A DNA stretch of 24,000 bases from Candidatus Dormiibacterota bacterium (GTDB taxonomy: Bacteria; Chloroflexota; Dormibacteria; Dormibacterales; Dormibacteraceae): positions 14,148-38,147 of the forward strand of contig DATBZP010000010.1 in assembly GCA_036513135.1 (NCBI GenBank), in the 5' to 3' direction. The notes under the pieces are model-generated. The model was not told the origin of the DNA. It saw nothing but the letters and a program-made list of their open reading frames with translations, and ran no database searches. Within the stretch, counting starts at the first letter, position 1, and each line of letters begins with the position of its first letter. A program made the translations under genes and the position numbers. Below, in pieces: positions 2,881-23,529 of this stretch.

Positions 2881-2933
2881 ATCGCCGATTTTGAACTCGA
2901 AAATTGGTCGGGGGCCCGGGATTGACACCCGGG
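2881..2933 (-). repeat. att-like copy A: degenerate tRNA-Pro T-arm/acceptor/CCA (2905-2933) plus about 24 nt of 3' flank
   Basis: Minus strand reads cccgggtgtcaatcccgggcccccgaccaattttcgagttcaaaatcggcgat. It aligns by eye with 19606-19657 at 45 of 53 positions, including a 21-nt perfect core (attggtcgggggcccgggatt on the plus strand). The two copies are in the same orientation. Confidence 0.6.
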
Positions 2934-3221: not shown

Positions 3222-3833
3222 TCATTTCTCCTGCTCCCCTCCCGACCGGGCGAATCGCACTAGTGGATCCACGTCCCCGGCATCCGCTGCTTTAAGCGCA
3301 GCTAAATAGCTCTGCCGAGCCGCACCTTCTCCTCGCAGGTCGTGGCGGCCCCATGGAAACGGACGTCCTCCGAGATTCTCGGCCAGTCTGTCGGCGCAGA
3401 ACCGAGCATGCCTACCGTTACCGTTTACAAAAGGATGGATGTTGACGATCTGGTGATGGAACTCAACACATAGTTGATCGCGATCCTCGCCCACCAGCGA
3501 TGCACGAAGCGCGAAGTTCTCGCACACCTGCCGGACAAGCACAGGGATTTGGGCCCAGGGGCCGCCTATGTTCTTATTGGTGAGACGATAGACACCGGCC
3601 CATTTCCAGACCCCGCCGAACATCTCCTTGTGGATCCTTCTTAAGGTGCTATCTAACAGCAGATTGCTGCGCACCAGCCGGCTTCGCGTTGCCCATATGC
3701 GCGCTCGTAGGATGTTCTCTTCTTCGGCGCGATTCAGTGCTTCCTGGGTATTGACGCGCAGAAGAAGGCCTTTGGCTTCGTCGGGATCGATCGGGGTTTG
3801 GCCGACGGCCTGTGCGTCGTCTCTTGGCGTCAA
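3222..3833 (-). CDS. Fic/DOC-domain protein ('mobile mystery protein B' type), putative AMPylating toxin
   Basis: 203 aa with the Fic active-site motif HPFVNGNGRHAR (HxFxxGNGRxxR). The TTG start overlaps the stop of the upstream HTH gene (TTGA). The architecture matches the TIGRFAMs mobile mystery protein A/B pair as I remember it. Confidence 0.88.
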   Translation of the reverse strand: MTPRDDAQAVGQTPIDPDEAKGLLLRVNTQEALNRAEEENILRARIWATRSRLVRSNLLLDSTLRRIHKEMFGGVWKWAGVYRLTNKNIGGPWAQIPVLVRQVCENFALRASLVGEDRDQLCVEFHHQIVNIHPFVNGNGRHARFCADRLAENLGGRPFPWGRHDLRGEGAARQSYLAALKAADAGDVDPLVRFARSGGEQEK

Positions 3834-4312
3834 TCCCAGATCTGGCTCGACCCCTGCGCAATGAGTCTTTCGCGAAGCGCATCGACCTGAGCAGCGCGCG
3901 CGCTGTCGTCCGTGGACTGGCCCTCTAGCGCCATTCCCTGCGATACCTCGCCAACGATCCGGTGGGCTGCTCGATTGGCGTTGTGGTGAACGATCATGTC
4001 AAGGGAGGCTCTGGGAACGACTGCGTACACGAGCTCACAATCCATCCCATCCGCCATCTTTCGAAGGTTCTTGAGTGTGATCCGACCTTCAGACTCAGCC
4101 AGCTCCGCCTCACTGACAGTGGCTTGCGAAACGCCGATTCGCCGTCCAAGCTGCTTTGCCGTCATCCCAAGAGCCGTCCGGATCCCTTTCAACCATCCAC
4201 CGGTCGGGGGTTGTAGGTGCACCCGCAGGAGCTGATCTTGGCCAAGGGCGCGCTCGATCTCCTCACGCTGAATACGGCGTCGGAGACCGCTCAGGGTCTC
4301 ATTTGAACTCAT
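3830..4312 (-). CDS. XRE-type helix-turn-helix protein ('mobile mystery protein A' type), putative antitoxin/regulator of the Fic gene
   Basis: 160 aa. The HTH segment is GMTAKQLGRRIGVSQATVSEAELAESEGRITLKNLRKMADGMDCELVYAVVP. It lies immediately upstream of, and overlaps, the Fic gene. Confidence 0.85.
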   Translation of the reverse strand: MSSNETLSGLRRRIQREEIERALGQDQLLRVHLQPPTGGWLKGIRTALGMTAKQLGRRIGVSQATVSEAELAESEGRITLKNLRKMADGMDCELVYAVVPRASLDMIVHHNANRAAHRIVGEVSQGMALEGQSTDDSARAAQVDALRERLIAQGSSQIWD

Positions 4313-4530: not shown

Positions 4531-6186
4531 TCATTGAATCGACATCGTCTCCATCGACAGGTACGTCCGTGCCGCCCAGGAGACCGAGTCCTGCGCGAAG
4601 TGGCGCTGCATTGCACGGTCCCGAATTGCATTGTCCAATGCGGCCATGATCATGGACTGGTCGAGCACCAGATAGCGGTGGCCGACCGACCCCGTCGCGG
4701 GATTGACGGCGTCGAAGAAACCGGCGGGCCCGTAGATGCCGGGGTAGAGCGTACGCAACGCCTGGATGTTGGCGTATGCCTGCTGCGGCGCGACATCTAG
4801 GGCGATGAACGACGCGTGGGGAGTTACCACGTCCTCCGTCGCGCAGCCATGGCACTGCGACAATCCCTCGTTCGGGTGGCTGGCGTCCGCCCCGAACCCG
4901 TAGTACGGGAACGTCAGGCCCTCGACCCCGAAGCCGCCATATCCGCCACTGTCATCGGCCGAGCTGGATGGCGACAGGCCCCAGACCGGGTAATGGAGCT
5001 GTTGGGTGGCGTACTTGATCTGAACTTGGGCGGTGCGCGCATCGGCAAGACCGAAGCTGTGCGGCCCCCACGTAGTCTCCGGGACGACCTCGTTTACCAT
5101 CAGTCCTTCGAACATCCCGCCGGCGTACGTCGGCACAAAGGTAAGACCGGAGCCGGTGTATACGTAATGCCCTTCCCAGACGTTGAACCGCTGGCCCGAC
5201 TGCGGATCGGCATAGGTCTTCCAGGAGCCGGATAGAGGCCATTGTCCCTGCCACGAGAAGTTGGGGTCAGAGCTCTGGCAGTCGGCGTACGGAGCCGCTG
5301 GTGGAAGTGTCCGCCAGCTTCGCCACCAGACGTTGCCCGGCATCTGGTGCAACCCCATGCCTATGTAGGCGGATATACGCGGATCGCTGTACAGAGCGCC
5401 GTTGTGGTAGTAACGCGTCCAGTTGTCACCCTGATAGGGGGGCAAGCCGACGTAGTACCCGCCGAACATCTGGCCGGTGGGCTGGTTGCCGGTAATTGCC
5501 GGGTTGGTATTGCAATGAGTCTCGGCTCGCGCATCGTAGAAAAGGCCGAAGTTCAACGGGGCCATCAGGCGGTCCACCACGCCCCTGAGCTCGGGTATGG
5601 CCTGCCGCACCACGATCAAACCCGAGGCGTACAAGCCGTTGTCGACATTGGAGATGAAGTAGCAGTTGTCGAATGCCGGCGTCGTCTCGGTGGTGCAGTC
5701 GATGCCGCCAGGGTTTTGGATGATGTGACCGGTCGTGGTGTCGTACCACTGGTAGAGGAACCCGTGATCTCTCTTCAGCTTGCGAACTTCGGTCAGGGTG
5801 GCCCCGATCTCCGAGCTCGCCTCCCGCTCGCTGATAAGGCCGAGGTCGTTGGCTGCGACCACTGCCCACAGATACACCCCGATGTTGGCGGCCGAGGTGT
5901 ATCTGCCATATGCGCTGGGTGCGGTGGAGCGACCGGCAAAGGTGAGGTTGTCAAGCGGCAGGTGGGTCTTGGGGTCGACATCCGTGCTGTAGAACTTCCA
6001 GGTGTCCTGTGCGATGCGCATCAGGTTCGCCAGCTGCCCATGAGTGAAGCCGCCGCTGGTGGAGCCGCCGGTGCCATCCGCGGCAGCCACGCCCTGAGCC
6101 GGCAACAGCATCAACGCGATGACGCACAAGACCACCAGCGGACAGCGCCGCGTCCCGATCCGCCGGAACAGTCCTTCTCTTCTCAT
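4531..6186 (-). CDS. Secreted glycoside-hydrolase-like protein ((alpha/alpha)6 'putative glucoamylase'/DUF3131-type, the fold family that includes beta-1,2-glucanases)
   Basis: 551 aa. The N-terminal signal peptide is MRREGLFRRIGTRRCPLVVLCVIALMLLPAQGVAAAD. Internal motifs (GFLYQWYDTTTG, NVDNGLYASGL, YGPAGFFDAVNPATG...YLVLDQSMIMAALDNA) are ones I associate with the DUF3131/glucoamylase-like families. It is the last gene of the sugar ABC operon. The family assignment comes from memory of motifs and was not searched. Confidence 0.55.
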   Translation of the reverse strand: MRREGLFRRIGTRRCPLVVLCVIALMLLPAQGVAAADGTGGSTSGGFTHGQLANLMRIAQDTWKFYSTDVDPKTHLPLDNLTFAGRSTAPSAYGRYTSAANIGVYLWAVVAANDLGLISEREASSEIGATLTEVRKLKRDHGFLYQWYDTTTGHIIQNPGGIDCTTETTPAFDNCYFISNVDNGLYASGLIVVRQAIPELRGVVDRLMAPLNFGLFYDARAETHCNTNPAITGNQPTGQMFGGYYVGLPPYQGDNWTRYYHNGALYSDPRISAYIGMGLHQMPGNVWWRSWRTLPPAAPYADCQSSDPNFSWQGQWPLSGSWKTYADPQSGQRFNVWEGHYVYTGSGLTFVPTYAGGMFEGLMVNEVVPETTWGPHSFGLADARTAQVQIKYATQQLHYPVWGLSPSSSADDSGGYGGFGVEGLTFPYYGFGADASHPNEGLSQCHGCATEDVVTPHASFIALDVAPQQAYANIQALRTLYPGIYGPAGFFDAVNPATGSVGHRYLVLDQSMIMAALDNAIRDRAMQRHFAQDSVSWAARTYLSMETMSIQ

Positions 6187-6211
6187 CTGTGGCAGCTCCT
6201 CCTGTGGGAAT

Positions 6212-7048
6212 TCAATCGCTCGGGGCCGTACCAGCCGTCGCGAACGGGGTGGCCACTGCGTCGAGCAGCTGCACGGTGTACTCGTGCTTTGGATGCTGCA
6301 GAACCTGTTTGGTCGGGCCCTGCTCGACCACCTTTCCTTTGTTGAGGACGAGGATCTCGTCGCTGATCACCCGCGCGCCGAGCAGGTCGTGGGTGATGTA
6401 GAGCAGGCTCAAGCCTCGTTTCGCGCGCAGGCTGGCCAGCAGCCGGAGCACGTCGGCCCGCAGGGACACGTCGAGCATCGAGACCGGCTCGTCGGCCACG
6501 ATCAGCTCCGGGTCACAAGCCAGCGCACGGGCGATGACGACGCGCTGCCTCTGGCCGCCCGAGAGCTGATGCGGCAACTTTCCCGCGAACTGGGCCGGCG
6601 GCGTCAGCCCCACCGTCTCGAGCAGCTCGTAGACCCGCTCCCTGGCTCGGGCAGGGGGCATGCGCAGGAAGTTCTGGCACGGACGCATGACCGTGTATTC
6701 GACGGTGTGCAGCGGGTTGAGCGCCGCATACGGATCCTGGAATACCATCTGCACCCGGCTGTGGTACTTGCGCAGCCCGCCGGCGTGCAGGCCTTCCACG
6801 GCGAGCTCGCCGAACCTGATCGATCCCGAGGTGGGCCGCTCCGAGCCCGTGATCATTTTGGCGATCGTGCTCTTGCCGCTTCCGCTCGCCCCGACCAGGC
6901 TGACGGCGGCGCCGGGCGCGATCGTGAACGACACGTCATCCACCGCGGTGAATTTCCCCCTGCCGCGTCCCCGTACGGTGTAGACCTTCGAAACGCCGCT
7001 GACGACGAGTGGCGCCACGGTAGTGGCCTGATCGGCTGCCGATCGCAC
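6212..7048 (-). CDS. ABC transporter ATP-binding protein (Opp/Dpp 'F'-type)
   Basis: 278 aa with Walker A GASGSGKST, signature LSGGQRQR and Walker B LIVADEP. It has a GTG start, and its start codon (7046-7048) is separated by a single nucleotide from the upstream ATPase stop codon (7050-7052). Confidence 0.9.
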   Translation of the reverse strand: MRSAADQATTVAPLVVSGVSKVYTVRGRGRGKFTAVDDVSFTIAPGAAVSLVGASGSGKSTIAKMITGSERPTSGSIRFGELAVEGLHAGGLRKYHSRVQMVFQDPYAALNPLHTVEYTVMRPCQNFLRMPPARARERVYELLETVGLTPPAQFAGKLPHQLSGGQRQRVVIARALACDPELIVADEPVSMLDVSLRADVLRLLASLRAKRGLSLLYITHDLLGARVISDEILVLNKGKVVEQGPTKQVLQHPKHEYTVQLLDAVATPFATAGTAPSD

Positions 7049-7049
7049 A

Positions 7050-8057
7050 TTAGTGGACAGGTTTCACTCCCTCCTCGGCGACCGCCGCTGACGGGGCCCT
7101 GACATGGCATGCGGCCGAGCCGTGCCCCAGTGGCGACATTGGCGGGTCAAGCGTCCGGCAGATGTCCTGCACCAGCGGGCACCGTGGCGTGAAGGAACAC
7201 CCAGCTTGCGGCAGTGACAGGTCAGGTGGGGTGCCGGGAATCCCACCAAGATGGATCTCGTCCGCGCGCGGGTCTGCGTAGCACCTCAGCAACGCTTCGG
7301 TATACGGGTGGTGCGGCCCGCTTACAAGGTCTTTCGATGGTTGGTCCTCGACGACCCGGCCGGCGTACATCACCATGACCCGGTCGGTGGCCTCGAGGAC
7401 GACGCCGAGGTCGTGGCTGATGAGGATCGCACTGAACCCGTTCTCGCGCTGCAGATCTTTGATCGTCTGAATGACTGCCTTCTGCACGATGACGTCCAGG
7501 GCGGTTGTCGGCTCATCGAAGATGATCATCCGGGGTTCGAGCGCGAGCGCGAGCGCGATCGAGACCCGCTGACGCATGCCACCGGACAGCTCGTGCGGGA
7601 ATCTGCTCAGCACCGAAGCGTCGAGGCCAACCTTATCGAGCAGCTCGGCACCGCGGCGTCTGACGGTCGCACCCGGGTAATGCTCGCCCCCGTGTGCGTG
7701 AGCCTTGAGGATGTCACCAAAGTGGTGCTCAACGTTGCGCACCGGGTTCAGAGCGTTCATGCCGCTCTGCAGCACGATCGCGAAACCGTTGCGTCGCTGC
7801 CGGCGCAACGCCTCGCCCTTCAAGGTGCTGATGTCGACGCCGTCAAACCGGATCACGCCCTTCTCCAGCCGAGCCGGCGGGCGAAGCATCCGGGTCAGCG
7901 CGAACCCCAGCGTCGACTTGCCGCACCCCGACTCACCGACCAGCCCGACGAACTCGCCCTGCTCCAAGACGAGGTCCACGTCGCGCACCGACCAGATCCG
8001 CTGCCCGCGTGTTGGCTCGTACACGACGTTGACGCCTTCCACTTCCAACAGTGCCAT
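7050..8057 (-). CDS. ABC transporter ATP-binding protein (Opp/Dpp 'D'-type with C-terminal oligopeptide-type extension)
   Basis: Walker A GESGCGKST, signature LSGGMRQR, Walker B IIFDEPTTALD, and a C-terminal CxFxxRC motif. I moved the start to MALLEVEG (ATG 8055-8057), which overlaps the permease stop (TGATG). The 37-aa N-terminal extension in the track lies inside the permease gene. Confidence 0.9.
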   Translation of the reverse strand: MALLEVEGVNVVYEPTRGQRIWSVRDVDLVLEQGEFVGLVGESGCGKSTLGFALTRMLRPPARLEKGVIRFDGVDISTLKGEALRRQRRNGFAIVLQSGMNALNPVRNVEHHFGDILKAHAHGGEHYPGATVRRRGAELLDKVGLDASVLSRFPHELSGGMRQRVSIALALALEPRMIIFDEPTTALDVIVQKAVIQTIKDLQRENGFSAILISHDLGVVLEATDRVMVMYAGRVVEDQPSKDLVSGPHHPYTEALLRCYADPRADEIHLGGIPGTPPDLSLPQAGCSFTPRCPLVQDICRTLDPPMSPLGHGSAACHVRAPSAAVAEEGVKPVH

Positions 8058-8995
8058 CACTTCTCCCGAAGGCGCGGATTGGATAGGGCGTCGACACCGA
8101 AATTGATCAGGGTGAACGACACCGCCAGCAGGGCGATGGCCAGACCGGGGGCGAAGACCAGCACCCACTGGCCGGTCAGTAGCGAGTTCTGTTGCTGGGC
8201 GTAGTAGAGGATGGTTCCCCAGCTGACCGTGTTGGGGTCGCCCAGGCCGAGGAACTCCAGGCTGGCTTCGGCCATCACGGCTGCGGTTGCCGCGCTGAAG
8301 AAGCTGCCGGCGACCAGCGAAGTCATGTTCGGGAGGATCTCGCGGAACACCACCCGGAAGAGTCCTTCACCGGAGAACACCGCCGAGGTCACGAACTCGC
8401 GGGTGCGCAGCGTCGAGGCCTGGCTGCGGATGACCCGCGCGCCAGTGGCCCAGCTGGTGAACGCGACGACAAAGACGATCGTCCACACCGACCGCTTCTG
8501 GAGGTAAGCGGCCAGGATAAACATGAGCGGCAAGCCGGGAATCACGAGCACGAGGTTGGTCATGAAGCTGAGCAGTTCGTCGATTACACCCGGCCGGTAC
8601 CCCGCGATGAGGCCGATCGTCACCGCCACGAGAGTCGCAATCGCTCCCGCCGCGATCCCGACCAGCAGGGATATCCGCGCGCCGTAGACCATCTGGGAGA
8701 AGACATCCTGGCCGTTGCCTGTGGTGCCGAACCAGTTGGTGGTACTGGGGTTCTGGTACGGGACGAACGTCGTCGCTGTCGGCGAGTGCGGCGCGATCAG
8801 CGGCGCGAACACGGCCACCAAGATGACAAAGCCGAGGATGACGAGACCGATGCTCGCCTTGCGGTTGCTCCAGAGCGTGCGCAGCGCGCGGCCGAGGAAG
8901 CGCAGCGGTCCAGGGATCGGGCCGGCCGGACCGACCCGGATCGCGACCCCCGCGCCGGGAACCTCCGGCGGCGGGACGGGACTGACAATGCTCAT
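8057..8995 (-). CDS. ABC transporter permease (OppC/DppC-type)
   Basis: 312 aa multi-TM protein with the EAA-like loop region (EASLEFLGLGDP). It overlaps both neighbouring genes. Confidence 0.9.
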   Translation of the reverse strand: MSIVSPVPPPEVPGAGVAIRVGPAGPIPGPLRFLGRALRTLWSNRKASIGLVILGFVILVAVFAPLIAPHSPTATTFVPYQNPSTTNWFGTTGNGQDVFSQMVYGARISLLVGIAAGAIATLVAVTIGLIAGYRPGVIDELLSFMTNLVLVIPGLPLMFILAAYLQKRSVWTIVFVVAFTSWATGARVIRSQASTLRTREFVTSAVFSGEGLFRVVFREILPNMTSLVAGSFFSAATAAVMAEASLEFLGLGDPNTVSWGTILYYAQQQNSLLTGQWVLVFAPGLAIALLAVSFTLINFGVDALSNPRLREK

Positions 8996-10005
8996 TGACG
9001 TACCCGGGGGTCGAGGCGGACGTAGAGCACGTCGACGATGAAGATCGCGACCAGCATGGCCACCGTGATGACCAGGAACAACGCCTGCATCAGAGGGAAG
9101 TCGTGGTTGACCACGGCGATGTAGAGCAGGTTGCCCAGGCCTGGATAGCTGAACACGCCCTCGACCAGGACCGATCCGCCGACAACGGCTCCCAACGAGA
9201 GCCCGAACGCGGTGACGTTGGGAAGTAGTGCGTTCCGGGCGGCATAGAGCAAGGCGACGGTGCGTGTCCGCAGTCCATTAGCCTCCGCAAACGTCACGTA
9301 GTCCTCGCCCAGGGTGTTAATCATGTTGTTGCGCATACCGAAGACCCAGCCGGACAGACTGGTGATGGCCAGCGTCAGCGCTGGGATGACGCTGTGGTAG
9401 ACCGCGCTGGTGAGGAACGACACGCTCAGGTTCGGGGTCTCGCCGGGGTTGTACCCACCTTTGATCGGGAACCAGCCGTACGTGAACGCGAACACGTAGA
9501 GCAGCAAAAGTCCGAGCCAGAAGGGCGGGAAGGCGGCGAAGAAGGTCGCGCCGAGCGTGACCGATGTGTCCGCCGCCTTACCGCGCCGCCAGCCCGCATA
9601 GACGCCCAGCAGGGTCCCGATGACGAACGCGAAAATCGTCGTCACGCCGACCAGGGCGAGCGTCCACGGGGCTGCCTTGCCGATGGTCTGCGCGACCGTC
9701 TCGCTCGGGAACGAGTATGAGGTGCCGAAATTGAGATGCACGATGCTCGTCCAGTAGTCCCAGTACTGGGTTATCAGGCTGGTGTTCGGCACGCCCAGCT
9801 GGATCTCGACGGCCCTCCGCTGGGCGTTGGTGATGGGTTGCCCGCTGGACGCGAGCTTGGCCAGCGCCGCGTCCACCGGGGAACCGGGCATGAGCCTCGG
9901 CAGGATGAAGTTGAGGGTGATCGCCGCCCACAGGGTGATCAGGAACAGCACCACCTTGCGGGCCACATATCTCATGGCCCGCAACCGGATGGCACTGGTG
10001 GACAC
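8992..10005 (-). CDS. ABC transporter permease (OppB/DppB-type)
   Basis: 337 aa starting with the typical (M)RYVARKVVLFLITLWAAITLNFILPRLMPGSP motif. The true start may be the internal Met at about 9975. Confidence 0.9.
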   Translation of the reverse strand: MSTSAIRLRAMRYVARKVVLFLITLWAAITLNFILPRLMPGSPVDAALAKLASSGQPITNAQRRAVEIQLGVPNTSLITQYWDYWTSIVHLNFGTSYSFPSETVAQTIGKAAPWTLALVGVTTIFAFVIGTLLGVYAGWRRGKAADTSVTLGATFFAAFPPFWLGLLLLYVFAFTYGWFPIKGGYNPGETPNLSVSFLTSAVYHSVIPALTLAITSLSGWVFGMRNNMINTLGEDYVTFAEANGLRTRTVALLYAARNALLPNVTAFGLSLGAVVGGSVLVEGVFSYPGLGNLLYIAVVNHDFPLMQALFLVITVAMLVAIFIVDVLYVRLDPRVRQ

Positions 10006-10041
10006 CTTCCACCAGTGCCTCTCATTTCGCCCGGAATCACC

Positions 10042-11694
10042 TTAGGCCTTGGTGAGGCGCGTCAGTACCGTCAACAGGGAGTTGTTGTAGCTGGTCGGCA
10101 GCGTGTACGAGTTGGCGGCCGACGGCCAACCGGTGAAGCGCTTCGTTGAGAACAGACCCCAGCTGCCGCCGTAGTACATGAGAACGATCGGAACCTTGTT
10201 GTACATGACTTGCTCGAGCGCGTACGTAGCCTGCATCTGTGCCGACGCGTCGGTGGCCGAGGCCAGCGTGGACAGCGCCTGGTCGACCGACAGGTCCTTG
10301 AACCGCTCGAAGTTGTTCGCCGTGGGCGTGTTGACTGGGGTGGCGAAGCTGCTGCTCAGCGCGAGGCTGTAGTCGGTGTAGGGATCACCGCTGCCGCCAA
10401 AGCCGCCGATCGCCGCATCGAAAGTCCCAGCTTGGATCGACTGCGAGTACTGCGCGTACTGCGGCAGGTCCAAACTGGCGTTGATTCCAACGCTGCCCAG
10501 CTGGTTGACGACCTCCTTGGCCGCCGCCACCCAGTCGCTGAAGTTGCCCGGCATCACGATGGTCATGCTGGCCTGCTTACCGTCCTTGCCGACCAGCTTT
10601 CCGCCTTGCGATGTGTAACCGGCTTGCGCGAAGGCCGCCTGCGCGGCCGACGTGTCCTGCTTGACGTTACCCTGGTTCGGCAGGCTCGGGTCGAGCCACT
10701 TCTTCAGGTTCGGCAGGATCAACCCCGACATGCTGGCCTGGTCGAGGTAGCCGTTGACCGCCTTCAGGGCGATCGTCGAACGGTCCAGGGCCAGCGATAG
10801 TCCCTTGCGGAAGTTGACATCGTTGTACGGCTGCTTCGTCAGGTTGAGGTACAAGGCGATCGTGCCGCCCGGCGGGAACCAGTACTGGTTGTGTGCCGAG
10901 TCACGGGCCACATAGGTCGTCTTGACATCGGGCAGGAAGTTGTAGGACCAGTCGAACTTGCCGCTGACCACGTCGAGCTGGTTGGTGCTCTGGTTGCTGG
11001 CCTGTGCGGGGAACAGCACCTCGGCAGGCGCGACCTTGTCGGCCTGCCAGTACGTCGTGTTCTTCTTCAACGAGTACTGGGTCGGCGCGAAGGCGTCCAG
11101 CATGAAGGGCCCTGTCCCCACCGGGCTGGCGTTGGGGTCCTTGGTCGGATCAGCCATGCTGGTCCACAGGTGCTCAGGCACGATGTCGGTCTGCGCGATG
11201 GAGATGGCGAACGGGACGTTGGGGGCGGAGAAACTCATCGTGACGTCGTTGCCGCTGGCGGAGACCGCAGTGATCTGCTGCCAGACCCCCCTGCCGTCCA
11301 GCGCCGGGTACTTCTTGAGCAGGTTGAAGGTGAACACCACATCGGCGGGAGTGAAGTCCTTGCCGTCGCTCCACTTCACGCTTTGCCGGATCGTGTAGAC
11401 GAGCGTCTTCGGGTCGGTGAATTTGTATCCGGTGGCGAGGAACGGCGTGTACGTGCCGTCGATCGGGCTCGGGATCTCCAGCGGCTCGTAGATGAGATTC
11501 GTTCCATGCAGCTGGGAACCCTGGAAGGGGTTGAAGTTCTCGACCAGCGTGGGATTGCCCGCGTCGCCCTGGATCGTCAGCGTGCCGCCGCCGGCTGCGC
11601 CGTTGTTGGCGCTTGAACAGCTCACGCCAACAAGGGCAAGCACTGCGGCGGCCGCGCAGATCGTCATCGATTTGGCATGTGAGAGTCGCCTCAT
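10042..11694 (-). CDS. Family-5 extracellular solute-binding protein (peptide/nickel/oligosaccharide type), probable lipoprotein
   Basis: 550 aa. The signal is followed by Cys (AVLALVGVSCSS), and the length and motifs are typical of SBP_bac_5. The ATG overlaps the GH39-like stop (ATGA). Confidence 0.88.
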   Translation of the reverse strand: MRRLSHAKSMTICAAAAVLALVGVSCSSANNGAAGGGTLTIQGDAGNPTLVENFNPFQGSQLHGTNLIYEPLEIPSPIDGTYTPFLATGYKFTDPKTLVYTIRQSVKWSDGKDFTPADVVFTFNLLKKYPALDGRGVWQQITAVSASGNDVTMSFSAPNVPFAISIAQTDIVPEHLWTSMADPTKDPNASPVGTGPFMLDAFAPTQYSLKKNTTYWQADKVAPAEVLFPAQASNQSTNQLDVVSGKFDWSYNFLPDVKTTYVARDSAHNQYWFPPGGTIALYLNLTKQPYNDVNFRKGLSLALDRSTIALKAVNGYLDQASMSGLILPNLKKWLDPSLPNQGNVKQDTSAAQAAFAQAGYTSQGGKLVGKDGKQASMTIVMPGNFSDWVAAAKEVVNQLGSVGINASLDLPQYAQYSQSIQAGTFDAAIGGFGGSGDPYTDYSLALSSSFATPVNTPTANNFERFKDLSVDQALSTLASATDASAQMQATYALEQVMYNKVPIVLMYYGGSWGLFSTKRFTGWPSAANSYTLPTSYNNSLLTVLTRLTKA

Positions 11695-13619
11695 GGTTGG
11701 TTCTCCTTGTTGTCTACGGTCGGTCGAGGGGGTAGTGCGGGCAAAAGGCGAATCCGGGCCACGCCCGGCATGGGCAATGCGAAGTTGAGCTCGGCCACGT
11801 GCTGCTGGGCCGCGACGTCCGGCAGGCCCTCCTCGTACAGCTCGTCGTGCGCGCGCAGTTGCGCCCAGAGGGCGTCATCCGGCCACTGCACGTCCGGTGG
11901 GCACTGAGCCACTACGTTGGAGTGCTGCTCGTCGATTCGGGCCAGTCTCACCTTGTGTTCTGTGTCACCAAGTCCGGTGACGGTGAGCCGGACGTTGCGA
12001 TCCAGCCGAGGGTCGCCGCCCAACAGCGCGGCGTTGATCGTGCCGTTCCATACCAGCACGTCGACGGTGCCGTCGTCATGGCGGGTGGCCCAGGCCTGCA
12101 CGAGCACGTCAGCTCCGTCGCCGCCGACGTGGCTTTCCAGCACATGGTCGCCGAGGTGCGCGGCCAGGTGCACGGCCCAGTACCGTGGCTTGCGCAGGTT
12201 TCCGACGCTGAGCAGGCCGAATCCGTTATGGAACAAGCGGGGTGGCCGGCCCAGCTCCTCGAAGTGGTCGCTGACCACCCAGTACGCCAACGCGTCCAGC
12301 CGGCCCTGCGTTGCGGCGAAGCCGCTGAGCACGAAAGGTGCGCCGATCACCGCGTCGTGAATCGGTCCGAAGTGCGTGGAGCCCACGCCCCACTCCGTCC
12401 ACCAGATCGGGACGCCGTCGAACCCGTTGTCGTGCAAGGGCGCGCGAACGTCCAACGGAAGGTTGCCGTAAGTGTGGGTGGAGACGAAATCCAGCGGTAC
12501 GCCTTCACTTGCGGCGTGTGCGGCAAGTGACTCGACCCACTCGCCTGCGGCTGTGGACGGCCCCCCCACTCGCAGCCGCGGATCGACACTCTTGATGCCG
12601 CGAATCGACTCGTCGTAGAGGCGCAGGTACTCCTCGCGCGTGCCCGACCAGAAGACCTCGAGGTTTGGCTCGTTCCACACCTCGAAGGCCCATTGGGCGA
12701 CCTCCTCGATGCCGTACCGCTGGACCAGATGGGTGGCGAGGGCAGTGACTAGCTCGCGCCATTCGCCCCAGTTCGCGGGCGGCGAGATGATGCCCCTATA
12801 GGTGAACACGCTCTGCTCGGGGTCGCGGGCCAGCGCCGCCGGCATGAACGACAGCTCGACGACCGGCCGGATGCCCATCTCGAGCAGCTGGTCATAGATC
12901 GCATCGACGCGATCGAAGCTGTACTGCAACCTTCCGGCCACATCGCGGCGCACCACATCGTTGTCGTCATGCAGGATCGCGTGCGCCCGAACAAGGGTGA
13001 TACCAAGGTCGTCGTGGGCCTGTCGGAGGGCCGCGGCGAACTCGGTGGCGATCCACTGCTCGCGGCCGTCGAGACACAGTTGCGAGAGCCGCTCCGAGCC
13101 GACCATGTGCCAGACCCGGCTCAGGCGGCCGGTGACCCTCGAGGCGTCAACCCGGACCTCGACGAGCCCCGCCGGACCATCGAGCGTTCGCGCCGAAACC
13201 GGCTCCGACCACGCCCACGCCGGGTACCCGGCACCGGCCACCGTGCCGATTCGATAGCTGTACTCGACGTCGTCGCGTACTCCGGTGTCTGCGAACTTGT
13301 CAGTGGAAACAGCGGGAACGTCGCTGCCGCCGTGGTCGAGGATGCCCGACGGGCCGTTTTGGCCGTCGGTCCGCTCGATCAAATACCCGGCCGCACCCGG
13401 CACCCGGTCCCAGCTCAGCCGGATGTGTCCCACCGCGCCAACCGCCCGCATTCCGGTCGGTGCGGGTAATTCCATCCGTCGATCGGCACCGGTGGTGTCT
13501 GTGGTCTTCCGATAGATCCGCCGCTCCCAGTCGGCTCGCGCGTCGGATTCGTGCGCCTCGTCCACCTGATCCGCGGCGGCGGCCCCCTGGTCGCGGTCAG
13601 CGCCCGCAAGTCTCGTCAT
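11691..13619 (-). CDS. Cytoplasmic clan GH-A glycoside hydrolase, GH39-like (beta-xylosidase-type), with an N-terminal Fn3-like domain
   Basis: 642 aa. FEVWNEPNLEVFW contains the NEP acid/base motif and PIWWTEWGV is the nucleophile region, within a TIM-barrel context. The N-terminus (GHIRLSWDRVPGAAGYLIERTDG) looks Fn3-like. There is no signal peptide. The start is uncertain (13619, or Met at about 13475). Confidence 0.7.
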   Translation of the reverse strand: MTRLAGADRDQGAAAADQVDEAHESDARADWERRIYRKTTDTTGADRRMELPAPTGMRAVGAVGHIRLSWDRVPGAAGYLIERTDGQNGPSGILDHGGSDVPAVSTDKFADTGVRDDVEYSYRIGTVAGAGYPAWAWSEPVSARTLDGPAGLVEVRVDASRVTGRLSRVWHMVGSERLSQLCLDGREQWIATEFAAALRQAHDDLGITLVRAHAILHDDNDVVRRDVAGRLQYSFDRVDAIYDQLLEMGIRPVVELSFMPAALARDPEQSVFTYRGIISPPANWGEWRELVTALATHLVQRYGIEEVAQWAFEVWNEPNLEVFWSGTREEYLRLYDESIRGIKSVDPRLRVGGPSTAAGEWVESLAAHAASEGVPLDFVSTHTYGNLPLDVRAPLHDNGFDGVPIWWTEWGVGSTHFGPIHDAVIGAPFVLSGFAATQGRLDALAYWVVSDHFEELGRPPRLFHNGFGLLSVGNLRKPRYWAVHLAAHLGDHVLESHVGGDGADVLVQAWATRHDDGTVDVLVWNGTINAALLGGDPRLDRNVRLTVTGLGDTEHKVRLARIDEQHSNVVAQCPPDVQWPDDALWAQLRAHDELYEEGLPDVAAQQHVAELNFALPMPGVARIRLLPALPPRPTVDNKENQP

Positions 13620-13746
13620 GCCGTCATTCCGAACCCCTCATCGACCTGCCCACAGACCCCGCTTTAACTTGTACGAACGATCGCTCCCAGTGCATAACAA
13701 AGACAGCAACTTTCTTCCTCAACGACCCTGTGGGGTCGTGCGCGAG

Positions 13747-14128
13747 GGCAAAAGTCAGGGTTGGTCCCCCTCCGATAGATCGATCGGTGATCCTCACCTG
13801 ATGCTCGAACTTCCCAGGCTCTTGCTGGCCGTACCGAGGGTTCTGCGCAGCCGGCATGACCTGCTTCTCGAAAACCTCTTCCTCCGGCAGCAGCTCCAGG
13901 TCGCCCTTCGCTCCCAGCGGCGGCCAACCCACCGAACCTGGGACAAGCACCGTGCTAGCCGAGTTCGTCGCCTATTACAACCACGATCGACCGCACCGGA
14001 CCTTGGGCCTAGAAACTCCGGTCACCAGTGCTCCCTTGTTCAGCGGCGAAGTTCGCTCTCGCCCGATCCTCGGCGGTCTACATCACGCTTACGAACGTGC
14101 CGCCTGACGAGGGATTTGGACTTTTGCC
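13747..14128 (+). mobile_element. Internally deleted IS remnant (rve/DDE integrase-core transposase, IS481/IS3-like) bounded by 10-bp inverted repeats
   Basis: The transposase N-terminal piece MLELPRLLLAVPRVLRSRHDLLLENLFLRQQLQVALRSQRRP (from 13801) is joined out of frame to a C-terminal piece VLAEFVAYYNHDRPHRTLGLETPV...GGLHHAYERAA* (ends 14107). The catalytic core is missing. GGCAAAAGTC (13747-13756) and GACTTTTGCC (14119-14128) form terminal inverted repeats. Confidence 0.6.
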
Positions 14129-14338
14129 ACCCCACGCCCGACAGTTGGTCCGGTCCGGTCTTTTTGGTGTTTGCCCAGCCGAGGGCCCTGACCTCATTAC
14201 CTTGTGACCTGGTCCTGGAACCACCGCTCGCAGCGAGATGTCCTGTGTTGAACATCTCTGACACTGTTGCTGCCTCTGTTATGGCACCTGGACGACCCTA
14301 TGCAGGCAAACCTGCGTTTCGCCCAAGGAGGTGTCCGG

Positions 14339-14494
14339 ATGATCCATGCATTACTCGTCGTGGCGGTCATTCTTTTCGTCCTCTGGCTGGTATTCCACGC
14401 GACCGGTGGTTTGGTCAACTTGATCTGGCTGGTGATCATCGTGCTGGTCGGGCTGTGGTTGTTTGGTCTCGTCCGAAGCCGTTCCGCGCGCTGA
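14339..14494 (+). CDS. Small two-TM membrane protein, lmo0937-family-like (51 aa)
   Basis: MIHALLVVAVILFVLWLVFHATGGLVNLIWLVIIVLVGLWLFGLVRSRSAR. AGGAGG lies 8 nt upstream of the ATG at 14339. A close paralog sits at 23374..23529. The longer track ORF from 14267 lacks an RBS. Confidence 0.75.
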   Translation: MIHALLVVAVILFVLWLVFHATGGLVNLIWLVIIVLVGLWLFGLVRSRSAR

Positions 14495-14595
14495 GGCGGG
14501 TCTGTGGGCGTGACGACGTTCAACCTCAAGCTTCCTAGGCTTGGGCGCCCCAAAAAGCGTTTCGCCTGAGGGACGCTGGACAACTTATTGTCAGC

Positions 14596-17725: not shown

Positions 17726-18634
17726 ATGGAACGGATAGTGGTCCTCGGGGGGACCGGCTTCATCGGCCGCAGGCTGCTTCCCGCCTTGCGCCGGACCGAC
17801 CGGGTCGTCCGGGTGGCCTCCCGCAGCCCCGGTGCGCCGGCCGATGTCGGCATCGAGCACGTCCGCTGCGACCTCGAGAGCGGGGAGGGCGTCGACCGGG
17901 CGCTGGAGGGCGCGGACCTGGCCTACTTTCTCGTTCACGGTATGGCCGAGGGACGGGGGTTCGCCGCTCGGGAGAAGATCGCGACCGCGAATTTCATTCG
18001 TGCCGCCCGCCGGCAGGGCGTCGCGCGCGTCATCTATCTAGGGGGGCTCTACCCGAGTGGTGGTCTCTCAGCCCACCTGGAGAGCAGGCGCGAAGTCGGA
18101 TTGATGCTCATCGAGGGGACGGGCGCGCTTGCCGTCCGGGCAGGTGTTGTCGTGGGCTCGGGGGGGGCGTCGTTCGACATCCTCTATGGGCTATGCCAGC
18201 GCCTTCCTCTGATGATTGCGCCGCGCTGGCTGGCCAGCCTGTGCCAGCCGGTCTCCATTGATGACACCGTCCGCTGCCTGGCCGGTGCGGCAGCGATCCC
18301 GGGCGGGCGCGAAGTGGATCTCGTTGGCCCGGACGTTCTGACCTACCGCGCCATGCTTGAGATCACGGGTTTCGAGTTGCGCGGGCGCAAGCCAGTCATG
18401 TTCCCGGTCCCATTCCTCTCCCCAGAGCTGTCCGCGCACTGGCTGCGGCTCGTCACCAAGGTCGACATGAACGTGGCCCGCTCCCTCGTCGCCAGCCTTC
18501 GCCACGACCTGGTCGCCGAGCGCCCTCTGCTCACTGCGGAGCTGGGGTTGACGCCGGCCGGTTTCCGAGAATCGGTCCGCACCGCACTGGCGGAACGCCG
18601 CAGGGTGCTCGTGCCCAGGATGCGAGCAGCCTGA
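17726..18634 (+). CDS. NAD(P)-binding atypical SDR / NmrA-YbjT-like protein
   Basis: I moved the start to MERIVVLGGTGFIGRRL (ATG 17726) because the Rossmann GxxGxxG motif follows immediately. The 105-aa upstream extension in the track is Arg/Pro-rich junk. Confidence 0.75.
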   Translation: MERIVVLGGTGFIGRRLLPALRRTDRVVRVASRSPGAPADVGIEHVRCDLESGEGVDRALEGADLAYFLVHGMAEGRGFAAREKIATANFIRAARRQGVARVIYLGGLYPSGGLSAHLESRREVGLMLIEGTGALAVRAGVVVGSGGASFDILYGLCQRLPLMIAPRWLASLCQPVSIDDTVRCLAGAAAIPGGREVDLVGPDVLTYRAMLEITGFELRGRKPVMFPVPFLSPELSAHWLRLVTKVDMNVARSLVASLRHDLVAERPLLTAELGLTPAGFRESVRTALAERRRVLVPRMRAA

Positions 18635-18692
18635 GCTCTTCTTCGCGGTAGGGATCTACGACCTGGTTGTCGCAGGCGACGGCGATCCGCCA

Positions 18693-19466
18693 TTACTTGG
18701 GGCGCAGAGTGCCGGCGAACACCTGCCACGCCAGAGCGGACTTCGCAACCAGGCTCAGGACCATGTAGACGCGCTCACCGTACAGAACATTCTTCCATCG
18801 GCCAATGCGGCGGTACTGAAATACCATGTTCAGAGCGAAGACGTTGAAGAAAACGAAGAGCGATGCGTAAATGAAATAGACAAAGGTGGGTGGGCGACTG
18901 CTGCTCCCGGCACCCGCACCAAACAGGTAGATCCCGATCGCGATCCAGGGCACGGCGCCTGCCAGGACGCCGAACCAGTAAGCGAGCCAGTCGACCGAGA
19001 CTCGACCCAGGTTGTAGCGCTCCATCGCCCAGCCGAAAAGGATCATTGAAGCGTTCACGCCGAATATGGCGACCAATGCAGCGATGTCGTAGATGCCCAC
19101 CAGCATCGCAATGAGAACAATCATCAGCGAGGAGCTCAACGAGTATTCGACCCAGCGCGCGGGGTTGGCGCCCAGCCGCACATTTCGTGCATACCAGGGA
19201 TAGACCCAGGGTGAGGCGACCACGAAATGCGCGATCGATGAGAGGAAGAGGAAGGCGGCGATCGCCGGGCCGAGCCTGACATTCAAAAGCACTTCTGGCC
19301 GTGGCACCAAAGTCTGCGTATTCGGGCTGAAGAAGAGGAAGTTGGTCATTACCGGGAGGGAGAAGCTCGAGGAGAGTAGGAGCATAAGGATGCCTTGCAC
19401 GAGGTGCAGGGAGCCCATCGCCACGTTGAACAGGCGTAGCCGGCCAAGTCCGACTGTGTTCGCCAC
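18693..19466 (-). CDS. Heliorhodopsin (7-TM retinal-binding photoreceptor with inverted topology)
   Basis: 257 aa with a GTG start and seven hydrophobic segments. The motifs are RLFNVAMGSLHLVQ, SSIAHFVV, RWVEYSLSSSLMIVLIA (Glu107, codon 19146-19148), IFGVNASMILFGW, AVPWIAIGIY, FVFFNVFALN and GERVYMVLSLVAKSALAWQVFAGTL (Lys242, codon 18741-18743). These match, nearly residue for residue, the conserved blocks of heliorhodopsin 48C12 as I recall them. Confidence 0.85.
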   Translation of the reverse strand: MANTVGLGRLRLFNVAMGSLHLVQGILMLLLSSSFSLPVMTNFLFFSPNTQTLVPRPEVLLNVRLGPAIAAFLFLSSIAHFVVASPWVYPWYARNVRLGANPARWVEYSLSSSLMIVLIAMLVGIYDIAALVAIFGVNASMILFGWAMERYNLGRVSVDWLAYWFGVLAGAVPWIAIGIYLFGAGAGSSSRPPTFVYFIYASLFVFFNVFALNMVFQYRRIGRWKNVLYGERVYMVLSLVAKSALAWQVFAGTLRPK

Positions 19467-19605
19467 AGCGCGACAAGAATAGTCGCCTCAACAGTCGGCG
19501 TTCAGATCCGGCCGACGAGGGTCAACCAACGCACCCCTAGTTGCGATAGTTCCCCGGGAAATTGTGACCCGGCTGTGATCCGACGACTCCAGTCAAGCTC
19601 CGGGA

Positions 19606-19676
19606 ATCGCCGAGTTTGAATACAGAATTGGTCGGGGGCCCGGGATTTGAACCCGGGGCCTCACGGTCCCGAACCG
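19606..19676 (-). repeat. att-like copy B: 48-nt 3' remnant of tRNA-Pro(CGG) (anticodon arm to CCA, 19629-19676) plus about 23 nt of 3' flank; not an intact tRNA
   Basis: Minus strand reads CGGTTCGGGACCGTGAGGCCCCGGGTTCAAATCCCGGGCCCCCGACCA. It has the anticodon loop TTCGGGA (CGG), the T-arm CCGGG-TTCAAAT-CCCGG and the acceptor 3' strand GCCCCCG-A-CCA. The complementary 5' acceptor strand (CGGGGGC) and a D-arm are absent upstream. Confidence 0.7.
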
Positions 19677-20034
19677 TTATGGCGCTCGGTTCGGTGTGCA
19701 CCGCCAGAGGCCGTTTGAGTTCACGACGTCGTCGGCTTCAGTCCGCCAGGTGCCGCCATGTGTCGGCCCATGCCGCCCGGGTTGCTATATGCGTTGCTAC
19801 ACGGCAGCCGCGATCGTGCGGCTCGCTGAGGAAGAGAAAGCTGCGATCGCGTTTGCTCAGGTCGGCCTCTCGCAGCTACGGCAGCTCGAAGGCCTAGAGA
19901 CTCGAGCACGCGATCTACACGCGACCACCCCAGGGTTTCGCAGACTCCGCGCTCGCCCGGAATGATGTGTTCCGCATCGAAATGCAGGGCCTCAGGCGTG
20001 CTGGCGAGCGAGACGAGGCCAGCGGGAACCGGTG

Positions 20035-20868
20035 TCAGTCGACCGGAGGCAGCTGTCGGATCAGACTATGCACGTTGAGTTTCGGCATCGGGACCCTCGG
20101 GTTCATGGCCCGCAGGGTTTCCAGCAGTAGGTGCGACACTGCCCAATCGCGGAATGGCTTGTCGTCCGCCGGGACGATGTACCAAGGGGCGGTCGGCTTC
20201 GAGCACCGGGTCAGGAGCATGTTGAAGGCCTCCTGGTATGCATCCCAATGACTCCTTTCTTTGATGTCATTGGGGCTGAACTTCCATCGTTTTTCGGGTG
20301 TGTTGAGGCGAGCAAGTAGTCGCTGACGCTGCTCCTCGTTTGAGATATGAAGGCAGATTTTCACGGGGATCACGTTTGATCTGGCAAGTCCAGCCTCGAA
20401 TCGGTTTATCTGCTCATACCGACTCTCGATCACTTCGGGAGCGGCCAACGCCTTGACCTTGGCGATGAGCACATCCTCGTAATACGAGCGATTGAAGATG
20501 GTGATGTGGCCCGGCCCCGGTATTTCCTTCTTGAACCGCCAGAGGAAATGGTGTCTAAGTTCGGTCGCACTTGGTGCCATGAAGGTGCGGACGTGCACAC
20601 CTTGAGGATCCATCGCCGCCATTAAGTGGCGGACCGTTCCGTCCTTGCCGCTGGTGTCCAATCCCTGCAGAACAATCAGGATCGCCTGTTTCTTCTCCGC
20701 GTAGAGGCGCTCTTGAAGGTCCAGCAATTCGGGGCCGTATTTCTCACGGGCGGCCGCTATCTTCTTGCGTTTGACTCCTAGCCGATCGCCAGGGTCAACG
20801 TCCCCGAGGCTCACCTGGCCTTTCCATGCGCGAGCCTTGAGCATGTCCCTCATGGATCTCTTTGCCAT
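20035..20868 (-). CDS. ppk2: Polyphosphate kinase 2 family protein (polyphosphate:nucleotide phosphotransferase)
   Basis: 277 aa with Walker-A-like LQGLDTSGKDG, FNRSYYEDVL and the C-terminal APWYIVPADDK motif. GGGAGG lies upstream of the ATG. Confidence 0.9.
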   Translation of the reverse strand: MAKRSMRDMLKARAWKGQVSLGDVDPGDRLGVKRKKIAAAREKYGPELLDLQERLYAEKKQAILIVLQGLDTSGKDGTVRHLMAAMDPQGVHVRTFMAPSATELRHHFLWRFKKEIPGPGHITIFNRSYYEDVLIAKVKALAAPEVIESRYEQINRFEAGLARSNVIPVKICLHISNEEQRQRLLARLNTPEKRWKFSPNDIKERSHWDAYQEAFNMLLTRCSKPTAPWYIVPADDKPFRDWAVSHLLLETLRAMNPRVPMPKLNVHSLIRQLPPVD

Positions 20869-20935
20869 TGAGCCTCCCGTTCAGCAGGTCACAGACGTTC
20901 GGCGAGAGCCGCGGCCGACTCCTTGGGCAGTGCGC

Positions 20936-21256
20936 TCACCTTGGAAGGATCACACGTAATGCGCTCAACTCCGCGGTGATGGTGGCCAGCGTGCGGCCGA
21001 GCTGGACGTTGTCAGCGTAACTTCGAACGCTCGGTTTAGTCGTCACTAGCAGCTTGCGGAACTTGAACACTTGGCCCAGACCGCCTTCCTTGTGCTTGGA
21101 GAGTACGGCGCGGGCAAGTACCCGCTTGACGATGCTGCCGAAGTCCAGCCGTGAGAGCTCTCGGTCGAAGAACCTGCCTTTTGGGAGAGCACGGGACGGT
21201 TTCGACAATCGGGGCACCGCCCTTGGTCCGAGGACGCCCGCGGCGACTGCGCTCAA
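20936..21256 (-). pseudogene. Possible decayed polyphosphate kinase 1 (PPK1) N-terminal remnant
   Basis: The ORF reads ...GRFFDRELSRLDFGSIVKRVLARAVL...GLGQVFKFRKLL. The PPK1 N-terminus, as I remember it, reads RF(L/I)NRELSWLxFNxRVLxxAxD...LLERxKFLAI. After a frameshift the next frame reads RLNRAFEV, compare NLDEFFEV. Only about 90 aa are present. This is weak similarity judged by eye. Confidence 0.3.
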
Positions 21257-22095
21257 GCCGCGCTACCCATCAGCCGGATCCAGCGGGCGCAGGCGAAGGA
21301 ATGGAGGCCCAGTGCCACGAAACCCAGCGCAATGATGCCTAATACGATGCGTCCGAATGGCTGGCCGAGCAAGAAGAGGAATGCGCCTCCGAAGCCTTGG
21401 ACTTGGGCGGCATCGTGGTGTATCCCGGCCTGGACAAGAAACCAACCGATCACCAAGAAGATGACGCCGCGGGCTAACATCCCGAAACGGCCGAGCTTCA
21501 CTGCTATGTCCCGTTCGGAGGCGCTCATCTCCGCGCCCTTCAGATCCTCTTTGAAAGTGGCGCGATAGGCTTCGAGGAATTGCCCTAAGGCGACCAGGAT
21601 GGCGACGAGGCCAATGACGACCGTCAACGGACCGCCGCCGGGGTGGGTGAGGATCGTGGCTATCGTTTTCTGGGTGCTGTCAGCGGCAGTTCCGCCTGAC
21701 CCCAAGAGGATCTGGACGGCGAAGAATACGATGGCCGCGTACGACACTGCGCTCGTGACGAAGCCAAGCCTCGCCGCGTAGCCGGATACGTCATGGCCAC
21801 GGTGCAGAGGGTCGTAGATCGCCCTGGTGAAACCCCACAATGAGTAGGCGGTCAGGCCGACCGCTACCACGATTAGCACCAGCTTCCCAAATGGGTTACG
21901 GATCAAGAACACAAGACTTCCCGACAAGTCAGTGGTCTGGCCGCCCCCGACTCTGAACGCTATACCCAATGCAAGCAGACCCATGACGGCGTACAGGGCA
22001 CCGCGGACGACGTAGCCCAACCGCTCTAGAAACTCGAGGAGCGGGTTGGCGGCCGCTCGCTTGACGGCGTTGTTGCCGGATTGAAGAGTTGCCAT
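21253..22095 (-). CDS. DUF1206-type integral membrane protein
   Basis: 280 aa. It contains a three-fold repeat of a paired-TM unit (G.VVRGALYAVMGLLAL, YAARLGFVTSAVSYAAI, RFGMLARGVIFLVIGWFLV) typical of DUF1206. Confidence 0.75.
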   Translation of the reverse strand: MATLQSGNNAVKRAAANPLLEFLERLGYVVRGALYAVMGLLALGIAFRVGGGQTTDLSGSLVFLIRNPFGKLVLIVVAVGLTAYSLWGFTRAIYDPLHRGHDVSGYAARLGFVTSAVSYAAIVFFAVQILLGSGGTAADSTQKTIATILTHPGGGPLTVVIGLVAILVALGQFLEAYRATFKEDLKGAEMSASERDIAVKLGRFGMLARGVIFLVIGWFLVQAGIHHDAAQVQGFGGAFLFLLGQPFGRIVLGIIALGFVALGLHSFACARWIRLMGSAA

Positions 22096-23373: not shown

Positions 23374-23529
23374 CTATCGCGTCGAGCGCCCGCGGACGAA
23401 ACCGAACAGCCAGAGCACGACCAACACGATGATTGCTATCCAGATCAGGTTAACCAGACCGCCGGCGGCGTGAAACAGCAACCAGAGCACGAAAAGAATG
23501 ACCGCAACTACAAGCAACGCGTGGATCAC
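23374..23529 (-). CDS. Small two-TM membrane protein, lmo0937-family-like (51 aa), paralog of 14339..14494
   Basis: Minus-strand ORF read by hand from GTG at 23529: VIHALLVVAVILFVLWLLFHAAGGLVNLIWIAIIVLVVLWLFGFVRGRSTR*. AGGAGG lies 7 nt upstream. It is not in the ORF track because it is below the length cutoff. The overlapping track ORF 23450..23734 is in another frame. Confidence 0.75.
   Translation of the reverse strand: MIHALLVVAVILFVLWLLFHAAGGLVNLIWIAIIVLVVLWLFGFVRGRSTR

Follow-up and report, generated by a model that had tools for sequence, protein, structure and literature searches.

The window analysed here, a stretch of 24,000 nucleotides from Candidatus Dormiibacterota, contains a heliorhodopsin (HeR) gene at positions 18693-19466 on the minus strand. 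The coding sequence starts with GTG (19466-19464), ends with the stop codon at 18695-18693, and encodes a product of 257 amino acids. A previous sequence-only reading of this DNA had called a 257-aa heliorhodopsin ORF at exactly this interval and was silent on its strand. The ORF is present; translation of 18693-19466 on the plus strand gives stops throughout. The GC3 of the HeR frame is 0.76, as in the real genes of the window, which has about 63% GC. Convergent with HeR and separated from it by a gap of 58 nt is a gene for an NmrA-like atypical SDR of 298 aa (17738-18634, plus strand). Upstream of HeR, 568 nt apart, is a gene for a PPK2-family polyphosphate kinase (20035-20868, minus strand). 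Two fragments of a tRNA-Pro gene are also found. Copy A (19629-19673, minus strand) is a tRNA-Pro(CGG) 3' fragment with 45 identical nt from the anticodon loop to CCA, and it sits 163 nt upstream of HeR. Copy B (2905-2935, minus strand) is a degenerate, shorter tRNA-Pro 3' end followed by about 25 nt of the same flank. The two copies are direct repeats 16.7 kb apart (chance expectation 0.00), and between them lies a mid-window sugar-uptake operon with GH39, Opp-type ABC transporter and glucoamylase genes.

The family of the 257-aa product was examined with profile and sequence searches, as the sequence-only reading had proposed. Pfam Heliorhodopsin (PF18761) matched with 330.5 bits (cutoff 26.7; E=6.8e-99) over profile positions 1-242 of 242. 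It was the sole Pfam family at E<=1, and no type-1 (Bac_rhodopsin) profile matched the protein. The NCBIfam equivalog NF038020, "heliorhodopsin HeR", scored 342.3 bits (cutoff 100; E=1.5e-102) over positions 1-244 of 244. TaHeR (3e-70) and 48C12 (1e-67) were the top matches in a sequence search of the PDB, with 47-51% identity. The conserved blocks and residue numbers quoted earlier were all found in the translation: His21 in GSLHLVQ, His80 in SIAHFVV, Glu107 in RWVEYSL, the IFGVNASMILFGW block at residues 134-146, and Ser238 with Lys242 in LSLVAKSAL. Alignment to 48C12 (6su3) placed these residues in the expected columns (H21=H23, H80=H80, E107=E107, S238=S237, K242=K241). Glu107 and Lys242 also fell in the expected columns of TaHeR, at 114 and 244 of the chain numbering (published E108 and K238). 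All five residues are invariant among the relatives. The SxxxK motif (S238 to K242) in helix 7, which serves as a HeR criterion in PMC8612252, is present in the window HeR. The product of 18693-19466 is thus a genuine heliorhodopsin, and its family membership is well beyond chance.

The window HeR is an ordinary representative of a large family of light-sensing retinal proteins known since 2018, with at least 7,955 proteins at E<=1e-10 in a word-indexed search, that current annotation names automatically. NCBI holds HeR proteins 94-98% identical to the window copy, and the exact 257-aa sequence also occurs on NCBI contig DAIRTV010000085.1. It had been expected that an annotator would label such a gene hypothetical. 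This is true of many JGI entries, which read "hypothetical protein", but NF038020 exists and NCBI proteins 95-97% identical to the window copy are named "heliorhodopsin HeR". The risk of HeR being overlooked therefore holds for older annotation pipelines only. The description of the host as a high-GC monoderm was approximately right, given the GC content of the window and a host in Candidatus Dormiibacterota. Of the closest loci, L008, L009 and L012-L015 are labelled Candidatus Dormiibacterota, and a few others bear discordant bin labels (Nitrosotalea, Clostridia and Acidoferrum). The ABC substrate-binding protein of the window, encoded by a gene unrelated to HeR, has its closest named relatives in Ca. 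Dormibacter and Dormiibacterota (79-82% identity), and the host is thus no actinobacterium. Dormibacterota are placed within Terrabacteria as sisters of Chloroflexota, or arguably as one of its classes (PMC10608941), and HeRs are reportedly confined to monoderms (PMC8612252). A monoderm envelope of the Dormiibacterota host is plausible.

An AF2 model of the protein has seven helices, in agreement with the 7-TM protein expected from the sequence, and the long A-B beta-hairpin typical of HeR (strands 36-47 and 52-64). The confidence of the model is modest (pLDDT 62) because the input alignment was shallow. When the model was searched with Foldseek against the PDB, the best ten matches were all HeRs (TM 0.75-0.81, 46-51% identity). 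Type-1 rhodopsins gave TM values of about 0.5 at 10-14% identity, the best with TM 0.54 and E=0.16. The predicted fold is thus closer to HeR structures than to type-1 rhodopsins. Lysines and arginines in the loops number 7 on the N-terminal side vs. 5 on the opposite side, a weak bias. By homology, the window HeR would have the inverted topology, with its N-terminus in the cytoplasm.

The start of the gene differs from that of its close relatives. Proteins of 95-98% identity are 274-276 aa long and start 17-19 codons earlier, with MDMTQMAQVAPSGRQPSNDV before ANTVG. Their genes begin with the Shine-Dalgarno (SD) sequence GAGGGAAAC, an ATG and 19 extra codons, vs. GTG in the window. At the DNA level, the window is 95-97% identical to six related loci (L002, L003, L004, L008, L009 and L011), and this similarity ends abruptly at 19470, 4 nt upstream of the GTG. 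The region that follows (19467-19520, minus strand) consists of about 54 nt unrelated to the corresponding 105 nt or so of the relatives, which comprise the 5'UTR, the SD, the ATG and the 19 codons. It includes an in-frame TGA (19490-19488) 7 codons upstream of the HeR GTG, and 39 of its nucleotides (19467-19505) are common to the window and the independent lineage L090. Next to it lies the GTTGGTTGAC motif (19521-19530, minus strand), which is also found upstream of the full-length HeR genes in L003, L009 and L088. We tentatively take this motif as the end of the alignment with the native upstream region; because it still aligns, about 105 nt were apparently replaced by about 54 nt. The gene had been described as an intact copy. 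That is correct for the HeR domain, which is complete, but not for the native 5' end, whose SD, ATG and 19 codons have been replaced.

No SD was found within 5-10 nt of the HeR GTG. A scan for promoter and terminator consensus sequences over 18500-20200 found none, including no sigma-70 consensus in the spacer. A TANNNT-like sequence, TATTCT, is located 9 nt upstream of the GTG, from which we infer only that a leaderless HeR transcript would fit. The junction is shared by four independent assemblies, which rules out an assembly chimera: besides the window, it is present in L001 (99.86% identity over 6.5 kb), L089 (99.55%) and L090 (95.9%). L090 is a 38.9-kb contig whose sequence farther upstream is unlike that of the window.

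The sharp breakpoint 4 nt before the GTG and the in-frame TGA 7 codons upstream might mean that HeR has recently been disabled, the replaced 5' end leaving a poorly expressed ORF on its way to a pseudogene. The absence of a properly spaced SD and of a promoter consensus, together with the heavy rearrangement of the surrounding region, would fit such a history. However, the 257-aa ORF is intact in all four junction-bearing assemblies, including L090, which is about 4% divergent. Of the codon changes in HeR between the window and L090, 14 are synonymous and 8 are nonsynonymous but conservative, with a dN/dS of about 0.2 as a rough estimate. Compared with six full-length relatives, the window copy has 8 synonymous and 2 nonsynonymous changes of its own. 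Because the changes between lineages are mostly synonymous, the short allele is under purifying selection, and because the junction is present in both lineages, this selection acted after the remodelling. In addition, the 257 residues span the full HeR profile, and the N-terminus is about as long as those of 48C12 and TaHeR. In view of this evidence for selection, a dying gene is improbable. These comparisons indicate that the 5'-shortened HeR allele is kept intact by purifying selection.

The tRNA-Pro fragments point to a rearranged region around this allele. Copy A has no 5' half and is therefore not a tRNA gene. The flank that follows its tRNA-derived core (19557-19628, minus strand) is 80-93% similar to the post-core flanks in L003, in the second copy of L009 and in L088. 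The core is found upstream of HeR in the same orientation in the window, L001, L008, L009, L088, L089 and L090, and downstream of the SDR gene in L003 and in the second copy of L009. In L088 there are three cores at spacings of about 3 kb, and arm-like GGACAC repeats stand before each of them. Copy B truncates an alpha/beta-hydrolase-like ORF at its DRPG motif. The cores look like attR-type scars of tRNA-Pro-targeting elements. By ARAGORN, the window and most loci are without a tRNA, and neither end has an intact tRNA-Pro. The program made one call, in L012, where the 5' half is atypical, so that an intact tRNA-Pro in this locus is uncertain. Across the window, Rfam at gathering thresholds had no matches. 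In the HeR-PPK2 spacer, the sole match of a scan by E-value was an S4-leader at chance level (E=0.34), and the tRNA fragment went unreported. Folding energies were no better than those of shuffled sequences for the tRNA-like fragment (z = -1.4) or for the HeR/SDR intergenic region (z = +0.2).

These features raise the question whether the HeR-SDR pair is cargo of, or has been moved by, tRNA-Pro-targeting integrative elements, in which case its presence would reflect mobility, either horizontal or within the genome, and not a long-standing chromosomal function. The cores lie near HeR or SDR in one orientation across related loci, they form the array with GGACAC repeats in L088, and in the window they occur as direct copies of which one cuts a hydrolase-like ORF. 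The surroundings of the 2-kb module differ from genome to genome. The sugar-uptake operon is syntenic in relatives of 93% identity on contigs of 213-662 kb, with differing flanks, and within about 8 kb upstream of it no HeR or SDR is found among the called genes of L091 and L093. On the other hand, neither the window nor the neighbourhood of HeR in any close locus contains an integrase by Pfam and tblastn searches. A recombinase in L002, used as a query for integrases, matched only L002 and L010, and weakly L016; it looks XerC/D-like and is unrelated to the cores. No intact tRNA-Pro marks either end, the viral contig collection lacks the exact 45-nt core, and the 16.7 kb between the two copies include an ordinary sugar-uptake operon that is syntenic in relatives. 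The breakpoint inside HeR lies away from the cores and was therefore not a clean site-specific event. We think it less likely than not that such elements account for the presence of the pair. The sequence comparisons do indicate that HeR sits in a plastic, rearranged part of these genomes, and a shortened allele maintained by selection within this part is the reading we retain.

The sequence-only reading had also described the gene context as readable. It is readable but uninformative: the neighbours vary among close relatives, with one SDR gene as the exception, and the context therefore gives little functional information. Convergent adjacency of HeR and SDR is found in the window, L001, L003, L004, L008, L009, L088 and L090, and SDR is the sole neighbour conserved with HeR. 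It does not lie beside HeR in L002, L005 or L012-L015. HeR and SDR are read from opposite strands and thus do not share an operon. The protein has the Rossmann motif GGTGFIG, and its catalytic Y-x3-K site reads S-A-H-L-E-S-R, with His and Arg for Tyr and Lys; this replacement is common to all six aligned homologues. The loss of the catalytic Tyr and Lys marks it as an atypical SDR of the NmrA+DUF2867 subfamily, the window copy being without DUF2867.

Distant SDR homologues (36-41% identity, 480-520 aa, with an added DUF2867) occur in Acidimicrobiia, Anaerolineales, Chloroflexia and unclassified bins. Such homologues were found at distances of 1-3.6 kb from HeR in at least 6 loci, a second search giving 7, and their surroundings there include photolyase, MerR+B12-binding regulator, DUF427, TspO and acyltransferase genes. 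Among 91 sequences, that is, 90 loci, all except L089 and L090 gathered via a HeR protein match, and the window, photolyase was within range of HeR in 15, B12-MerR in 13 and SDR in 16. SDR is also among the ten recurrent HeR neighbour groups in the survey of PMC11109279. These associations suggest that the HeR-SDR pair is loosely tied to light-stress genes, and they make SDR the best context-based candidate for a partner of the window HeR. Two other candidates were set aside. PPK2 was rejected as a partner because it adjoins HeR only in this lineage (the window and L001), and the two-component system at 610-2453 is unsupported in that role, being 16 kb off, beyond copy B, and of a kind that is common.

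Taken together, we think it likely that the locus encodes a functional retinal-binding HeR, most probably a slow-cycling, non-pumping light sensor that modulates a partner. Its 5'-replaced allele is under purifying selection. Lys242 would bind all-trans-retinal, the Schiff-base counterion would be Glu107, and His21 and His80 would lie next to this counterion. By homology with 48C12 and TaHeR, the protein would run a slow photocycle without ion pumping. By analogy, HeR would respond to light by altering the partner's activity through direct contact. The first 19 codons of the ancestral gene and its ribosome-binding site have been lost by a local replacement, with GTG now serving as the start. 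A sensory model of HeR has been put forward (PMC8612252), and partners in other organisms are glutamine synthetase (PMC9529153), photolyase (PMC9769723) and an ABC transporter (PMC11109279).

The lateral fenestration residues of HeR are present as Y163, V167, G170, F207, N208 and A211, which correspond to F162, C166, G169, F206, N207 and A210 of 48C12. This motif is a proposed carotenoid site found in 91% of HeRs (preprint 10.1101/2025.11.27.691015). The main role of the protein might then be light capture with a second, exogenous carotenoid antenna instead of partner signalling, a view compatible with a sensor. Because the motif is so widespread, it is not distinctive for the window HeR. Moreover, the antenna was proposed in a preprint from structure, docking and sequence statistics and not from a demonstrated energy output, and no retinal or carotenoid biosynthesis gene is found in the window. 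We give antenna capture a small chance of being the main role.

The fold and the counterion are also shared with V2HeR3, a viral HeR that transports protons (PMC9448325), which would allow the window HeR to be a light-driven or light-gated ion transporter and not a sensor. However, the window HeR shares 50% identity with 48C12 and is distant from the viral subfamily, and it has the fenestration motif that is reportedly missing in the viral transporting group. For 48C12, Pushkarev and colleagues, in the founding study of 2018, reportedly found no ion transport. Viral-type ion transport is very improbable for the window HeR because of its closeness to 48C12, and the light sensor remains the function that we favour.

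A bolder version of the sensor proposal would join HeR to its neighbour. The 2-kb unit of HeR and short SDR in Dormiibacterota might be a self-contained light-response module shuffled among tRNA-Pro-repeat sites, in which SDR would signal directly and link light to NAD(P)H redox. The sites would then be arrays of integrase-less cassettes mobilised in trans. If this were true, the 5'-remodelled allele would be a natural experiment showing that HeR can do without its N-terminal extension and native promoter. We regard this combination as quite unlikely.

The finding places a well-conserved HeR in Candidatus Dormiibacterota, an uncultured lineage of soil bacteria known chiefly for oxidising trace gases. 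In a literature search, we found no paper discussing heliorhodopsin in Dormiibacterota. The naturally N-terminally shortened allele, which selection has kept, is a small usable fact for the design of HeR expression constructs. The neighbourhood data give further support for the recurring link of HeR to light-stress genes, namely the atypical NmrA/DUF2867 SDR, photolyase and B12-dependent MerR regulators. The context in the window is poorer than in the studied HeR systems, and HeR function is no more testable here. The overall importance of the window HeR is modest, and specialists would not be surprised by it.

With respect to known systems, the tRNA-Pro repeats resemble tRNA-targeting islands and integrase-less cis-mobilizable elements in having direct repeats of about 45 nt from a tRNA 3' end that flank variable genes, and in the tandem arrays of L088. 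They differ in that no integrase or intact target tRNA is in view and the HeR breakpoint is off the repeat. Among heliorhodopsins, the founding member 48C12, from an uncultured freshwater actinobacterium (PDB 6su3, 6su4, 6uh3 and 9ljj), is about 50% identical to the window HeR over the full length. The IFGVNASMILFGW and LSLVAKSALAWQ blocks are identical in the two proteins, and the folds agree with TM 0.75-0.80. In contrast to 48C12, the window HeR comes from Dormiibacterota, carries insertions of 2 residues in the A-B hairpin and of 1 residue in the D-E loop, and starts at a derived replacement. TaHeR, from a Thermoplasmatales archaeon (PDB 6is6, 7clj and 7u55), is the best PDB match (46-48% identity, TM 0.77-0.81), and its counterion Glu and Schiff-base Lys align with those of the window HeR. 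Unlike the window HeR, TaHeR has an archaeal host and an E-F loop 5 residues shorter. AbHeR with glutamine synthetase (PMC9529153), TfHeR with photolyase (PMC9769723) and OcHeR with the OmrDE ABC transporter (PMC11109279) belong to the same family and provide the working model for partner modulation. Their partners share the HeR operon, whereas none of those genes adjoins the window HeR. V2HeR3 (PMC9448325) is of the same family and has the same chromophore site, but it belongs to the viral subfamily, transports protons, and reportedly lacks the fenestration motif that the window HeR has.

The heliorhodopsin gene is preceded (20035-22095, minus strand) by a gene for a PPK2-family polyphosphate kinase, assigned to the TIGR03709 subfamily with 321 bits, and by one for a DUF1206 membrane protein. 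Among the loci compared, these two genes adjoin heliorhodopsin in this lineage only. An operon on the minus strand (4531-13619) encodes a GH39-like glycosidase, an Opp-type ABC transporter with its binding protein, two permeases and two ATPases, and a glucoamylase-like protein. Its gene order is kept in L091 and L093 (8049-17125), 93% relatives whose contigs measure 213-662 kb, and the genes flanking the operon there on either side are unlike those of the window. Two paralogous genes encode a 51-aa small membrane protein with two helices (MIHALLVVAVILFVLWL...). Located at 14342-14494 (plus strand) and 23374-23529 (minus strand), they make up an inverted repeat of 168 nt, its two copies being 77% identical and 8.9 kb apart. 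A 306-aa ORF overlapping the first copy (13618-14538) matched no family and is probably spurious.

Heliorhodopsin genes 84-97% identical to that of the window are found on contigs named Nitrosotalea sp., Clostridia bacterium and Candidatus Acidoferrum sp. (L002 and L010 of GCA_035534295.1, L004 of GCA_035648475.1, and L017); these contigs probably come from mis-binned or misclassified MAGs. The heliorhodopsin P0019, encoded at 7208-8038 of the related locus L088, is 95% identical except for short aberrant stretches (e.g. WYAASAA-G and DRDIRR...VDGALQPGPQSR), which look like compensated frameshifts and may derive from sequencing errors or a decaying copy. Locus L089 (1793-2910) is 99.55% identical to the window, and the match breaks off sharply at window position 17903, within the gene of the NmrA-like SDR that is convergent with heliorhodopsin. 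Either a further rearrangement or a chimeric assembly would account for this break.

Near heliorhodopsin in several Dormiibacterota genomes, the 3' ~45 nt of tRNA-Pro(CGG) is repeated in a single orientation, and the 5' half is absent. The window carries copies at 19629-19673 (copy A) and 2905-2935 (copy B), both on the minus strand. Other copies lie in L009 (6-50 and 6986-7030), L003 (9319-9363), L090 (5253-5277) and L088 (654-699, 4157-4201 and 7006-7050), where the three fragments are spaced ~3 kb apart with GGACAC direct repeats ahead of them. The second heliorhodopsin copy of the L010 bin, in L011, has a different context, with two divergent tRNA-Arg genes (9197-9272, minus strand; 9480-9555, plus strand) ~450-800 bp upstream.

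Beside copy B, an alpha/beta-hydrolase-like ORF (2936-3190, minus strand) comprises the N-terminal part only (...FFFHGTPHSRL...VITVDRPG). It stops at the DRPG motif, exactly where copy B starts, and is a gene truncated at a rearrangement junction. An HTH_3 and Fic/DOC gene pair (3222-4312, minus strand), resembling a toxin-antitoxin system, also adjoins copy B. A Fic gene is present in L088 too (9745-10170), after the heliorhodopsin-SDR pair. The tRNA-Pro fragments look like att scars left by integrase-less cassettes, but neither an integrase nor an intact tRNA to accompany them was found in the window or the close heliorhodopsin loci.
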